A DNA stretch of 64,000 nucleotides. Origin: an uncultured archaeon (GTDB lineage: Archaea; Nanobdellota; Nanobdellia; Woesearchaeales; CAIVOO01). Both the position numbers and the translations under genes were made by a program. Below are positions 25,737 to 50,210 of the stretch, one piece after another; position 1 is the first letter of the stretch, and every line of letters starts with the position of its first letter. The notes under the pieces were generated by a model. That model saw only the letters and a program-made list of their open reading frames with translations. It ran no database searches and was not told the origin of the DNA. The stretch is taken from positions 1,558-65,557 of the forward strand of contig CAIVED010000027.1 of NCBI GenBank assembly GCA_903904885.1, written 5' to 3'.

Positions 25737-25784
25737 TTGCCGTATTATTCCCAGACGGTTTAAAAACTTTTTCCCACAGAAACC

Positions 25785-25792
25785 TTTATAAA
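25785..25792 (+). promoter_or_regulatory. TATA box of tRNA-Asn
   Basis: TTTATAAA about 25 nt before the tRNA. Confidence 0.6.
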
Positions 25793-25816
25793 TGTGCTTC
25801 CTGAACGACCTTTTAC

Positions 25817-25945
25817 GCCCCCGTAGCTCAGCAGGTTCCTTGAGAGCCTAGCTTTCAGGGTTGCAAAGAGCGCATGGCTGTTAACCATGAGGTCACCAGA
25901 CAGAAAGATAATCTTTCTGGGTGAATTCGAGTCTGGTCGGGGGCG
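25817..25945 (+). tRNA. tRNA-Asn(GTT) with two non-canonical introns (D-loop 25837-25866; position 53/54 25900-25925)
   Basis: Acceptor GCCCCCG/CGGGGGC, anticodon arm CATGG-CTGTTAA-CCATG, T-arm ACCAG/CTGGT; both introns form bulge-helix-bulge motifs (GCAG/TTGC and CACC/GGTG central helices). Confidence 0.9.
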
Positions 25946-25947
25946 TA

Positions 25948-26718
25948 TTATTTTCTTAGTAAATTTTCTCGAATTGAAAGAGAAGTACCTGGAGGCACAA
26001 ACCCTTGTTTTTTCCAGAGAAAGTACTTTGTTAACTGGACAGGCGAATTAAATCCAATTTCAGACATCCATTTATTCAGTCTTGGAACACCATTAATCTG
26101 AATGTAATAATTTCTGTGAACCTTCCCCTTTCTTGTCTGAAATCTGGAATTTGAATAAAATTTAAATTTTAAATCTTCCAGTATTTTCTTTGTTGAATTA
26201 TGTAAAACTTCGTCAGAAGTTTGATAATCAATAACTGGGTAATAATTGATGTTTTTGTGCCTTGCCTTGAAAGCAAGGCTAAAATCAGCGTCAGCGAGAC
26301 CTCTCAGGAATGACCTTTTAATTTCAGGATTGCTTTTAAGAATTATGCTTGGAAACTCATAATTTGACTTTTTCCCTAAAGGCAATCCGCATTTTTCATG
26401 GAGAAATGAGAGTATTGTTTTTGAGTATATTGTTATATTAGCTGTTGTCTTTTTTGATAAAACTTTTACATTTTTATTAAACAGCTTTTTTATTAATGGA
26501 CATAAGAAGGATTTATACCATTTTAGCTCTTCAGAAAGATTTCCATCATATGAAATATAGTAATTAACCCCATTCCTCTTTTTATAAACACTCATCGATC
26601 CGTCTCCAAGATGAAACCCGAGCAGATAAGCTAATTCTAGATTTAGTGTTTCGGGCAGTTTTATTTTTTGTTTCAAGTCTAAATCACTAAAAGAGATATC
26701 TGAGGAGTCAAATTTCAT
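25948..26718 (-). CDS. Free-standing LAGLIDADG (DOD/intein-type) endonuclease
   Basis: LAYLLGFHLGDG and FLRGLADADF motifs; stop codon 2 bp from the tRNA-Asn 3' end; low GC. Confidence 0.85.
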   Translation of the reverse strand: MKFDSSDISFSDLDLKQKIKLPETLNLELAYLLGFHLGDGSMSVYKKRNGVNYYISYDGNLSEELKWYKSFLCPLIKKLFNKNVKVLSKKTTANITIYSKTILSFLHEKCGLPLGKKSNYEFPSIILKSNPEIKRSFLRGLADADFSLAFKARHKNINYYPVIDYQTSDEVLHNSTKKILEDLKFKFYSNSRFQTRKGKVHRNYYIQINGVPRLNKWMSEIGFNSPVQLTKYFLWKKQGFVPPGTSLSIRENLLRK

Positions 26719-26821
26719 AACTTGAATATAGACTGACCATTTAAATACTCATCGTCGAGGGATGTCCAGTGAACTTTTGAGGGAAAGGTTTATAAAACAT
26801 TTCTTTGTGCAGTTATTCATC

Positions 26822-26896
26822 GGGCCCGTAGCTTAGTTTGGCTGGAGCGTACGACTGATAATCGTAAGGTCCCGCGTTCAAATCGCGGCGGGCCCA
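26822..26896 (+). tRNA. tRNA-Ile(GAT), intron-less
   Basis: GGGCCCG/CGGGCCC acceptor, TACGA-CTGATAA-TCGTA, TTCAAAT T-loop; TTTATAAA at 26789. Confidence 0.95.
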
Positions 26897-32002: not shown

Positions 32003-32120
32003 GCCCCTGTAGTATAGCTTGGATAGAATACGGGCTTGCGGTAGCGGCGAACAATGTTCGCCTGAGTTTACAGCTCACTGCAAACAGCCTGTGACCCGGG
32101 TTCGAATCCCGGCGGGGGCG
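32003..32120 (+). tRNA. tRNA-Arg(GCG) with canonical 37/38 intron (32042-32085)
   Basis: GCCCCTG/CGGGGGC acceptor, CGGGC-TTGCGG|A-GCCTG, CCGGG-TTCGAAT-CCCGG; BHB helix TTGC/GCAA. Confidence 0.9.
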
Positions 32121-49127: not shown

Positions 49128-49152
49128 AGCCCCGTGGTGTAGTGGTCAAGCA
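49128..49152 (+). repeat. Duplicated 5' 25 nt of mature (spliced) tRNA-Gln
   Basis: AGCCCCGTGGTGTAGTGGTCAAGCA equals exon 1 (50095-50116) joined to the first 3 nt of exon 2 (50142-50144). Confidence 0.9.
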
Positions 49153-49187: not shown

Positions 49188-50147
49188 ATGAGAATTAAAC
49201 TAAAAAAATTAAAACAAAAAGAACTGATTAATAATTTCAAAAAAGAAAACAGTCTCACCTGGGCAGAACTTTCTGATGTACTAGGCGTCAAAAAGGGGGC
49301 ATTGCTGAACTGGTATTATGAAAGAACACTATTACCCCGTTCAGTTTATAAAAAGATAGACCCAAGAGGCATTTATAGAAAGTTCATAATACAAGAATAT
49401 AGTGAAAAGTGGGGAAAAAGTAAAGGGGGCCACAATTCAAAGGGGAATACTAAGTATGTAAAAGCCCCTCAATATTCCGAAAAATTAGCGGAGCTTGTAG
49501 GAATAATTCTTGGTGATGGAAATTTGAATTTGTACAATAAAAACGGCTTTGGAACTTATTCAATTAGAATAACTGGCGATGCCAACAAAGACGCGGAATA
49601 CTTAAGAGTTTACATACCCCATTTATTTAGAGATATTTTTAACGTAGAAGCAAAAATATACAAACCAAAAAACAATAATGGGTTAGTAGTGCTAGTTCAT
49701 AGCAGGATGGTCCTAGAGCATATGGAAAAAATGGGTTTAAAGAATGGAAATAAGCTTAAAAATCAGATTACGATACCCAAATGGATATGGAGTTCTGATT
49801 CTTATTTGAGAGCATGCACAAGAGGATTAATCGATACGGATGGTTCAATTTATGAGCTTAAAACACACTGGCCAGGCACTTATCAGATAAATTTTGAGAA
49901 TAGCAATATGACCCTACTAAAAGACTTCAGAAAAGCTCTGATTCACATAGGGTTTATTGTATCAAAAATCTGCTCTAACCGGTCCAAGATAAGAGGGAAA
50001 AAGATATATATAACTCGTAAAGACCAGATAGAAAAATATTATAAAGAGATAGGTTCTTCAAATCCTAGAAAGAGAGAAATACTTAAAAGAAGCCAGCCCC
50101 GTGGTGTAGTGGTCAAATTTCTCTCTGAAAAGAAAGACCAGGCATAG
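49188..50147 (+). CDS. Free-standing LAGLIDADG endonuclease with N-terminal HTH; 3' end overlaps tRNA-Gln
   Basis: LTWAELSDVLGV HTH; LAELVGIILGDG and TRGLIDTDG; TTTAAATA at 49159. Confidence 0.88.
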   Translation: MRIKLKKLKQKELINNFKKENSLTWAELSDVLGVKKGALLNWYYERTLLPRSVYKKIDPRGIYRKFIIQEYSEKWGKSKGGHNSKGNTKYVKAPQYSEKLAELVGIILGDGNLNLYNKNGFGTYSIRITGDANKDAEYLRVYIPHLFRDIFNVEAKIYKPKNNNGLVVLVHSRMVLEHMEKMGLKNGNKLKNQITIPKWIWSSDSYLRACTRGLIDTDGSIYELKTHWPGTYQINFENSNMTLLKDFRKALIHIGFIVSKICSNRSKIRGKKIYITRKDQIEKYYKEIGSSNPRKREILKRSQPRGVVVKFLSEKKDQA

Positions 50148-50210
50148 TGGCCTTTGGCAGTCTGAAACTGAAGACAGCCATTGACGGCGGTTCGAATCCG
50201 CCCGGGGCTA
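50095..50210 (+). tRNA. tRNA-Gln(TTG) with D-loop intron (50117-50141) and 37/38 intron (50158-50175)
   Basis: AGCCCCG/CGGGGCT acceptor, GTGGC-CTTTGG|A-GCCAT, GGCGG-TTCGAAT-CCGCC; BHB helices GGTC/GACC and CTTT/GAAG. Confidence 0.9.

Follow-up and report, generated by a model that had tools for sequence, protein, structure and literature searches.

HE1, a LAGLIDADG homing endonuclease gene, lies in a 64,000-nucleotide stretch of DNA (the window) from an uncultured archaeon of the Woesearchaeales (assembly GCA_903904885.1, contig CAIVED010000027.1, positions 1,558 to 65,557 of the forward strand). Its stop codon (25948-25950) falls 2 nt past G73, the discriminator base of a convergently oriented tRNA-Asn(GTT) gene, and this tRNA gene is interrupted by two non-canonical introns, the second of which ends 22 nt from the stop codon. 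A sequence-only reading of the window had described the same arrangement, which stands on the open reading frame (ORF), an intron-tolerant tRNA scanner, an alignment and the predicted bulge-helix-bulge (BHB) folds. The locus is one of three of its kind in this genome (Table 1), and similar pairs of endonuclease and tRNA genes are frequent in related archaea. Below, G000 is the genome that holds the window, G001 is a genome of the same genus, and other genomes, contigs and loci carry G, C and L numbers.

Table 1. Features of the window and of the third endonuclease locus of the genome (window positions, except for HE3).
Feature	Position	Strand	Description and basis
TATA-like box TTTATAAA	25785..25792	+	about 25 nt upstream of tRNA-Asn 5' end; sequence reading
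tRNA-Asn(GTT)	25817..25945	+	129 nt, three exons; intron-tolerant scanner, 7-bp acceptor stem and T-loop, alignment with relatives' 73-nt genes
Intron 1 of tRNA-Asn	25837..25866	+	30 nt, D-loop, position 20/21; alignment, boundaries slide by 1-2 nt
Intron 2 of tRNA-Asn	25900..25925	+	26 nt, T-stem/T-loop border, position 53/54; alignment
HE1	25948..26718	-	free-standing double-motif LAGLIDADG homing endonuclease gene, 256 aa; Pfam
TATA-like box TTTAAATA/TATTTAAA	26741..26748	-	23-30 nt upstream of HE1 ATG; sequence reading
Candidate relic GTCGAGGGATG (rejected)	26754..26764	+	local score 6; 7/8 match to tRNA-Asn 3' exon
tRNA-Ile(GAT)	26822..26896	+	intron-less; ARAGORN, Rfam 65.4 bits; 103 nt from HE1 start
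tRNA-Arg(GCG)	32003..32120		canonical-position intron only
5' fragment of intron-less tRNA-Gln	49128..49152	+	22 nt as exon 1, next 3 nt as exon 2; 23-nt direct repeat
HE2	49188..50147	+	LAGLIDADG gene, 319 aa; Pfam LAGLIDADG_3, 43.3 bits; 26% identical to HE1
tRNA-Gln(TTG)	50095..50210	+	Rfam 45.2 bits, fold; D-loop intron 50117-50141, canonical-position intron about 50158-50175
HE3	G000:C4:56305-56994		LAGLIDADG gene, 229 aa; directly upstream of 175-nt tRNA-Cys(GCA) (to 57175; L001:1305-2175)

HE1 is an intact two-motif LAGLIDADG endonuclease gene, with motif 1 (LLGFHLGDG) and motif 2 (LRGLADADF) in one polypeptide. Residues 133-222 match Pfam LAGLIDADG_3 at 27.6 bits (cut-off 22.5), and the N-terminal half (residues 32-105) has weaker matches to LAGLIDADG_1 and LAGLIDADG_2. 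The aspartates at the ends of the two motifs, D39 and D145, are invariant in an alignment of HE1 with 29 homologues; in this family of enzymes these positions are taken to be catalytic. Among solved structures, archaeal V-ATPase intein endonuclease domains come closest in sequence (7qsu, E = 9e-9; 7qsu/7qss, E ~1e-8), and the NCBIfam matches are to intein-containing proteins only (the RtcB, V-ATPase A, DnaB and RFC models). In a phage collection, the only match was a weak one to a Bacillus phage. The G+C content of HE1 is 31.5%, that of HE2 33.6% and that of HE3 36.7%, compared to 42.5% for the genome, and HE1 falls within the lowest 2.4% of 750-nt genome windows. The TATA-like box upstream of the start codon may act as the HE1 promoter element. 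An independently assembled contig (X2 record 6) covers positions 25747-26187 with zero differences from the window, so the junction of HE1 and tRNA-Asn cannot be explained as an error in the assembly of the window alone. Four low-depth DNA runs, which gave short contigs, contained no joined form of an allele lacking HE1 or the introns.

The tRNA-Asn(GTT) gene is the only tRNA-Asn match in the genome (one BLAST match in G000). Because of its two insertions it was missed by ARAGORN (bacterial settings) over the window, and it scores only 13.2 bits with Rfam, at whose gathering score it was missed as well. The introns were placed with an alignment of nine tRNA-Asn genes, six of them from relatives and either uninterrupted or otherwise interrupted, plus the same-genus gene. 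Intron 1 is not present in the tRNA-Asn of G001, G027, G016 and G005, and it shares an alignment column with an intron of G044. Both introns fold into a 3-nt bulge, 4-bp helix and 3-nt bulge in the minimum-free-energy and centroid folds (precursor z = -4.7), and the splice sites derived from the alignment fall within the predicted bulges. In intron 1 the helix is GCAG/UUGC with bulges GUU and AAA, and the outer helix is the D-stem. In intron 2 the helix is CACC/GGUG with bulges AGA and AAU, an 8-bp inner helix and a weak outer helix. The genome encodes one splicing endonuclease, EndA (PF01974, 102.4 bits; G000:C10:19413-19673). Splicing of both introns is plausible, and since the gene is single-copy they presumably must be removed. 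The TATA-like box upstream of the gene probably acts as its promoter, and a homologous box also precedes the intron-less tRNA-Asn of G001.

HE1 comes from one of many endonuclease lineages in the Woesearchaeota and Nanoarchaeota (DPANN) whose 3' ends are fused to tRNA genes. Homologues (E <= 1e-3) occur in 27 of 60 related genomes, with none in G001, and five of the matches carry internal stops. A first sample of 40 loci was reduced to 37 by setting aside two inteins (frames of about 950 aa or more) and one locus without a profile-matching ORF. Using a scanner that tolerates T-arm introns, a tRNA was found within 80 nt of the endonuclease stop, or across it, in 30 of these 37. In a second sample, of named species representatives (Candidatus Woesearchaeota, Nanoarchaeota, Candidatus Nanoarchaeia and Iainarchaeum), the scanner found a tRNA at the endonuclease 3' end in 17 of 21 loci, and L085 was added by eye. 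By scanner, then, a tRNA adjoins the 3' end of 47 of 58 free-standing homologues, 29 in tandem (the tRNA 5' end is at the endonuclease) and 18 convergent (the tRNA 3' end is). Rfam added the tRNAs of L004 (70 bits) and L063 (36 bits), and those of L058 and L064, which have an unusual T-loop, were recognised by eye. No tRNA was found at the endonuclease 3' end of L016, L056 and L074 in the first sample.

The contact between the two genes is close. In the HE1 clade the gap to the tRNA is 0 to 6 nt. The genes overlap by 19 nt in 5/15 convergent loci, where the stop codon is a TGA antisense to the T-loop, and by 10 nt in 3/15 tandem loci, where U8-A9-G10 is read as the stop (TAG/TGA). Rfam at its E-value threshold misses most multi-intron tRNAs, and the scanner yields about 50 false candidates per 1.31 Mb, which is too few to explain the adjacency; single calls with a 53/54 or T-loop intron near endonuclease 5' ends count as candidates only. 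Segment removal followed by ARAGORN acceptance was also tried as a tRNA finder, proved unspecific and was dropped. Introns close to the 5' end seem enriched in tandem loci; this stays an impression because a simple D-arm integrity test mislabelled ordinary tRNAs and was not used. At L064 (G002:C56:1-2420), a complete Cys-like tRNA with two introns is followed by a same-strand endonuclease gene and, directly after its stop, by the 3' part (about positions 39-73) of a tRNA from another allele. One reading of this locus is a giant canonical-position intron that contains an ORF.

The 1.31-Mb genome itself has three LAGLIDADG ORFs among 7205 ORFs of at least 60 aa (profile search; Pfam search), and all three abut multi-intron tRNAs: HE1 at Asn, HE2 at Gln(TTG) and HE3 at Cys. 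Abutment alone is ordinary in this compact genome, where 21 of 1044 ORFs of at least 150 aa end no more than 80 nt away from one of the 42 tRNAs. Three of these 21 are the LAGLIDADG genes. The association, which was merely suggestive in the sequence-only reading with its two cases, is far stronger when all three genes of the genome and 47/58 homologues in relatives are set against 21/1044 ORFs. The genome-wide comparison that had been proposed there also shows an association: an endonuclease is adjacent to 3 of about 10 tRNAs with non-canonical introns versus none of about 32 other tRNAs (one-sided Fisher p ~0.01; intron classes from ARAGORN, Infernal and the scanner, partly by eye). The other tRNAs of this class are Lys-TTT, Ile-TAT, Pro-TGG, Asp, two Leu and one at C1:35847. 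Within the window, both tRNAs with non-canonical introns do touch a LAGLIDADG 3' end, as had been noticed, and HE2 overlaps the first 53 nt of its tRNA. The tRNA-Arg(GCG), which had been singled out as having a canonical intron and no such neighbour, is abutted at 3 nt by a MacB/FtsX permease gene.

HE2 is arranged in tandem with tRNA-Gln(TTG). Its final 53 nt (50095-50147) read through exon 1 and the D-loop intron into the start of exon 2, and its stop codon TAG (50145-50147) lies within the 3' strand of the D-stem. Upstream of HE2, positions 49128-49149 are an exact copy of exon 1, and the GCA that follows fits exon 2 and not the D-loop intron. This fragment thus resembles the 5' portion that a break at about position 25 would leave of an uninterrupted tRNA-Gln. 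The LAGLIDADG ORF alone lies between the two repeats. At the place of the fragment, G001 has an intact tRNA-Gln(TTG) with neither the D-loop intron nor an endonuclease. In G004, from another genus of the same family, a 25-nt fragment and a 299-aa endonuclease frame precede tRNA-Gln(CTG), which has a D-loop intron at the same site, and tRNA-Gln(TTG) has a canonical intron only. The element thus occupies different isoacceptor genes in the two genomes.

HE3 is adjacent to a tRNA-Cys(GCA) with several insertions, the first directly after position 8, of which Rfam detects only the T-arm. A 10-nt repeat at this locus (C4), ATGCGGGGGT, matches the acceptor 5' strand and the T-arm. It was not counted as a tRNA-end repeat; repeats of 10 nt also occur in the controls.

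In a tree of 60 proteins (IQ-TREE, LG+G4, SH-aLRT support), each endonuclease lineage keeps to a single tRNA species and a single orientation. The sister of HE1 is L075 (support 99), from a metagenome-assembled genome of Candidatus Nanoarchaeia, which is 44% identical over the full length and is convergent, with a 6-nt gap, to a tRNA-Asn carrying a 53/54 intron. Both belong to a six-member clade (support 98) that is entirely convergent. The HE2 clade has eight members (support 97), all in tandem on tRNA-Gln, and seven of them are labelled with a D-loop intron. Another clade of eight (support 99) is found at tRNA-Gln with an intron at about 9/10. Sister pairs share Pro, Tyr, Phe, initiator Met, CAT-anticodon tRNAs, Arg, Ser, Leu and Gly. 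The isotype changes 23 times on the tree versus a mean of 38.1 (minimum 34) in 300 label shuffles, and the orientation 6 times versus a mean of 16.4 (minimum 10). Because kin share labels, this signal fits vertical descent as well as target-specific homing, and it is the patchy distribution that favours homing. The genes around the Asn loci with an endonuclease differ, with DUF212, CDP-archaeol synthase and tRNA-Ile in G000, a metallophosphoesterase in L075, and radical SAM and M50 peptidase genes in L061. L061, the third Asn locus, has an endonuclease from a different clade than HE1.

The 53/54 intron of tRNA-Asn was found only together with an endonuclease. All three tRNA-Asn genes with this insertion (G000, L075 and L061) have a convergent endonuclease. 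A BLAST survey with the G001 gene gave tRNA-Asn-like matches in 32 of the 60 relatives; 29 loci were fetched and 21 genes recognised. Of these, 14 are uninterrupted, three have a D-loop intron at about 16/17, two have an insertion at the canonical position, one has a canonical and a T-loop insertion, and one has introns at 20/21 and the canonical position. None of the 21 has an intron at 53/54, and no endonuclease ORF was found within 1.5 kb at any of the 29 loci. The comparison of 3/3 to 0/21 gives p ~5e-4 at face value, with relatives that are not independent of each other. Among all endonuclease loci, five of the 18 convergent ones have a 53/54 intron (L006, L007, L059, L061 and L075) and one has a T-loop intron (L057), versus one of the 29 tandem loci with a 53/54 intron (L082). 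The D-loop introns at about 16/17 in the tRNA-Asn of L113, L114 and L128 (G017, G006 and G004) are similar to each other, ending in ...GGAGCAA[CT]C, and are at another site than the 20/21 introns of G000 and G044.

G001 has the same gene order without HE1: an intron-less 73-nt tRNA-Asn, an unrelated 214-aa ORF and tRNA-Ile. HE1 is thus polymorphic for presence and absence at this locus within the genus. The 214-aa ORF at its place (L038:167-811, on G001:C1) has no Pfam match. In the window, the LAGLIDADG ORF is the sole ORF between tRNA-Asn and tRNA-Ile. The tRNA-Ile, correctly described before as intron-less and about 100 bp from the 5' end of HE1, is a neighbour and not a member of the unit, as it also adjoins the locus in G001. 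Scanned ORFs next to HE1 and HE2 include no integrase or recombinase family.

The candidate relic GTCGAGGGATG, previously proposed as a copy of the tRNA-Asn end outside the HE1 TATA box, is at chance level and was rejected. Its score against the 20-nt 3' exon was matched or beaten by 30% of 2000 shuffled sequences and by 26% of the 620 other 103-nt windows compared. Homology between G001 and the window resumes at 26783 by BLAST, or about 26766 by eye, so the sequence sits at the edge of the replaced segment and is evidence of nothing. A direct repeat of at least 10 nt of the tRNA-Asn end was not found on the far side of HE1, nor was a relic found in the same way at L075. The suggestion that the Asn locus is an independent and older instance of the Gln system therefore holds in its first part, as HE1 and HE2 are in different well-supported clades; the greater age had been deduced from the relic and is not supported.

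Copies of tRNA ends are present at other loci. Direct repeats of 17-23 nt of a tRNA end flank the endonuclease gene in 7/39 loci (G000 Gln, L047, L017, L063, L070, L062 and L071). The repeat of an eighth locus, L014, is a second tRNA gene, and in the inverted-repeat control the longest match was 13 nt. At G000 Gln, L047 and L017 the copy stops where the D-loop intron of the working gene starts. In the convergent locus L062 the copy begins at the 3' boundary of the canonical-position intron, and in L071, also convergent, it begins at position 53 of a gene whose working copy has no intron. At L063 and L070 the copy stops at about position 21, with no intron there. The breakpoints thus cluster at the D-loop/D-stem border and at 53/54, where the introns adjacent to endonucleases are located. 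The Asn locus is convergent and the Gln locus tandem; the mirror image of the Gln architecture, with a true 3' relic, occurs not in this window but in relatives, at L062 (23 + 17 nt) and L071 (21 nt).

Several other copies of tRNA sequence were observed. At L070 (G011:C49), the upstream tRNA-Leu fragment at 128-200 is split by a 37-nt insertion with a 6-nt duplication, which points to more than one event at this locus. Copies of tRNA 3' ends are also located 80-110 nt downstream of the tRNA, away from the endonuclease, at L019 2382-2398 (17 nt), L014 1214-1228 (15 nt), L010 2388-2397 (10 nt) and G000:C6:7116-7189 (+81 nt; 13 nt). These are not explained by a simple homing model. At L046 (G005:C43), a 16-nt copy of the tRNA-Gln(CTG) 5' end precedes an intron-less tRNA-Gln by about 150 nt. 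The interval holds no endonuclease, and the copy may be the footprint of a lost element.

HE1 is, on balance, probably a selfish free-standing homing endonuclease that targets a tRNA gene and travels with a protective BHB intron, an arrangement known as collaborative homing. The enzyme would recognise the uninterrupted tRNA-Asn gene and cut it in the T-arm at about 53/54, and the break would be repaired using the allele with the endonuclease gene. Located 22 bp from the site, the gene would be copied together with the 26-nt insertion at 53/54. The insertion would split the recognition site and make the carrier immune. Folding as a BHB, it would be removed from the pre-tRNA by the host splicing endonuclease, and the single-copy tRNA-Asn would stay functional. 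When the element moves to another locus or isoacceptor, where homology is limited to the tRNA, one-sided repair would place a second tRNA end beyond the endonuclease gene, and the relics at Gln and in relatives would be explained in this way. A cut by HE1 at 53/54 is suggested by the co-occurrence of intron and endonuclease and by the relatives; likewise, we infer the specificity of cleavage, the immunity via the intron, the repair pathway and the splicing. The patchy distribution, the five matches with internal stops, the low G+C content and the differing flanks of the Asn loci are traits of a mobile element. There is strong support for one general system of LAGLIDADG gene, tRNA and non-canonical intron, of which the Asn locus is a second, independent case.

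A number of observations weigh against homing with a protective intron. Two of the three Asn positives were found via their endonuclease, BLAST misses heavily interrupted tRNA-Asn genes, and the relatives' kinship makes them non-independent. D-loop introns are present in the tRNA-Asn of four relatives that have no endonuclease there. The tRNA-Cys of G001 orthologous to that at HE3 has a 5' intron, but no HE3-like gene was found upstream. No endonuclease gene or remnant was found near the other tRNAs of G000 with non-canonical introns (best E = 0.35). The endonuclease-linked tRNAs of L071, L083, L008 and L004 have no adjacent intron, nor do the relic junctions of L063 and L070, so the intron is not required for coexistence. 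As the Asn locus is without a relic, the window itself does not map a break to 53/54. Finally, homing leaves unexplained why the 3' end of the endonuclease gene, and not its 5' end, touches the tRNA; possible cases of a tRNA on the 5' side are L064, which was verified, and the unverified scanner candidates L016, L078, L081 and L087.

Mobile endonuclease genes could instead settle at tRNA ends as harmless sites, using RNase P or RNase Z processing, termination and tRNA-derived stops, with the introns unrelated to them. We regard this as unlikely, although it agrees with the stop codons that are often supplied by the tRNA (5/15 convergent and 3/15 tandem loci), with the four loci just named whose tRNAs have no nearby intron, and with the many non-canonical introns that have no endonuclease. 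It does not explain why copies of tRNA ends break off at positions 21 and 53 or where an intron begins or ends, why clades are faithful to one tRNA isotype, or why the 53/54 intron of tRNA-Asn is found only with an endonuclease (3/3 versus 0/21).

In a formal sense the Gln fragment, HE2 and the second copy of exon 1 could be taken as one 1-kb intron, from 49149/49152 to 50142. The endonuclease genes may descend from a large BHB tRNA intron that contained the ORF, as archaeal rRNA introns do; duplication of the adjacent exon would have allowed the tRNA to form from a short precursor, placing the ORF outside and leaving a small intron behind. In line with this, the 3' tRNA fragment of L064 starts at the canonical intron boundary and directly follows the endonuclease stop, and the endonuclease 3' end always contacts exon sequence. 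At Asn, the HE1 ORF is beyond G73, past the tRNA 3' end, on the opposite strand and with no second 3' exon, and thus is not between splice sites. There is also no repeat in 32/39 loci, and no case was found of an ORF between splice sites without an exon duplicate. This origin seems improbable to us; it concerns the ancestry of the element and is compatible with homing of the present genes.

The tRNA-end repeats could be the att sites of an integrated plasmid or virus, with the LAGLIDADG gene as a passenger. A comparable locus is the tRNA-Thr(GGU) of Caldiarchaeum subterraneum, where a 5' fragment (1-27) is followed by a 1.87-kb insertion with an 813-bp ORF and then by the tRNA, which has gained an intron at 24/25 (Sugahara et al. 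2012, PMC3293823). Its authors call the ORF a putative recombinase and propose integrase-type integration, and the words 'homing' and 'LAGLIDADG' do not appear in their text (PMC3293823). The Gln architecture of fragment, same-strand gene of about 1 kb and tRNA with a new intron matches this locus. The repeats studied here enclose 0.8-1.0 kb with a LAGLIDADG ORF alone, and no integrase or recombinase family was found in the scanned ORFs by HE1 and HE2. Direct repeats of tRNA parts at both borders are present at Gln and six loci of relatives but not at Asn. The recombinase label of the Caldiarchaeum ORF came from a machine-learning classifier (PMC3293823). Passenger status is very unlikely.

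Just as doubtful is a domesticated protein, such as a maturase-like or DNA-binding factor for the neighbouring tRNA, that is inherited vertically. The invariance of both motif aspartates in the alignment of HE1 with 29 homologues and the stable pairing of clade and tRNA would fit such a host function. The gene is not present in the same-genus genome nor in 33/60 relatives, however, and five matches have internal stops. Its low G+C content, the differing flanks of the Asn pairs and the functioning of tRNA-Asn without an endonuclease in 21 relatives also speak against it. Chance adjacency in a compact genome, where a permease gene ends 3 nt from tRNA-Arg and 2% of ORFs end near a tRNA, is refuted by the three of three genes in the genome and the 47/58 in relatives versus the 21/1044 of the control, and we give it almost no weight.

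Other tRNA genes of G000 also have unusual structures. At G000:C24:129444-129692, a tRNA-Lys(TTT) with a D-loop insertion begins 70 nt after a tRNA-Asp(GTC) whose T-loop holds an insertion of 16 nt, with no endonuclease or remnant nearby. A tRNA with a TAT anticodon (Ile-UAU type) at G000:C37:20559-20690 has D-loop and canonical introns. Two identical 125-nt tRNA-Tyr genes (G000:C6:43000-43124 and C24:128848-128972) are either a real duplication or assembly redundancy.

The pairing of endonuclease and tRNA is so frequent in related archaea that it may explain the origin of odd tRNA introns. How non-canonical introns arrive in archaeal tRNA genes is an open question, for which these loci supply a concrete candidate enzyme. 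The link of enzyme and intron is supported by the tRNA-specific lineages, the breakpoints at intron sites and the sister genome that lacks both intron and enzyme. More tentatively, and with the odds against it, free-standing LAGLIDADG endonucleases that home into tRNA genes could be a general engine of archaeal tRNA gene disruption. If so, each invasion would plant a short BHB intron that gives immunity at the cut site, and one-sided repair would scatter tRNA fragments. Loss of the endonuclease gene, for example by recombination between the duplicated exon copies, would leave an orphan non-canonical intron. Orphan D-loop and T-arm introns, tRNA fragments and perhaps split tRNA genes would then be the scars of past endonuclease visits, and the Caldiarchaeum 'recombinase' element of 2012 would be an element of the same kind. 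The pairing of endonuclease and intron would also give a reason why standard callers so often miss DPANN tRNA genes, as with the tRNA-Asn here (Rfam 13 bits, missed by ARAGORN), and would offer a pool of natural endonucleases with tRNA-gene specificities.

Collaborative homing has been described for phage group I introns, in which a free-standing endonuclease acts with an ORF-less intron at its target site (PMC3984707). The Asn locus resembles the phage systems in having the endonuclease gene beside the target gene, an ORF-less intron at the presumed cut site, which would make carriers immune, and an intron and gene that are inherited together. It differs in that the intron is a BHB intron, predicted to be removed by a host protein enzyme, and not a self-splicing group I intron. 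The target is also a cellular tRNA gene, the enzyme is a LAGLIDADG protein, and the gene is fused base-to-base to the tRNA end. With insertions of 26 and 30 nt that have BHB folds and are not group I introns, the locus is a variant and not a strict member of collaborative homing, and it would carry the concept beyond phage group I introns, to cellular genes whose introns are spliced by proteins.

The DOD domains of inteins are the closest sequence relatives of HE1, which has no Hint splicing domain and is a stand-alone 256-aa ORF without a host protein. LAGLIDADG enzymes such as I-DmoI are encoded inside BHB introns of archaeal rRNA genes. They are also found in archaeal group I introns, with Woesearchaeota among the hosts (PMC6125680). 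These enzymes share with HE1 the family, the archaeal hosts and the conserved RNA gene targets; their ORF is inside the intron, whereas here it is outside the gene and the short intron is ORF-less.

The Caldiarchaeum locus is similar to the Gln case of G000 and G004, in that the fragment ends at the new intron site and a same-strand gene of about 270 codons is directly upstream. Alleles with and without the insertion coexist there, and the organism is from a different phylum than G000; the likeness is one of architecture. A 2026 preprint on Asgard tRNA introns offers no general arrival route, states that how introns arrive "remains open" and never mentions homing endonucleases. No published link of LAGLIDADG genes to archaeal tRNA genes was found in open-access full texts and bioRxiv, and an earlier report elsewhere is possible. 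In the Thermoproteales, Fujishima et al. are said to have described tRNA intron 'transposition' in 2010, with non-canonical BHB introns that are mobile and recently gained and with no enzyme proposed. In contrast to that case, the loci described here have a candidate enzyme that is physically attached to the intron-bearing genes.

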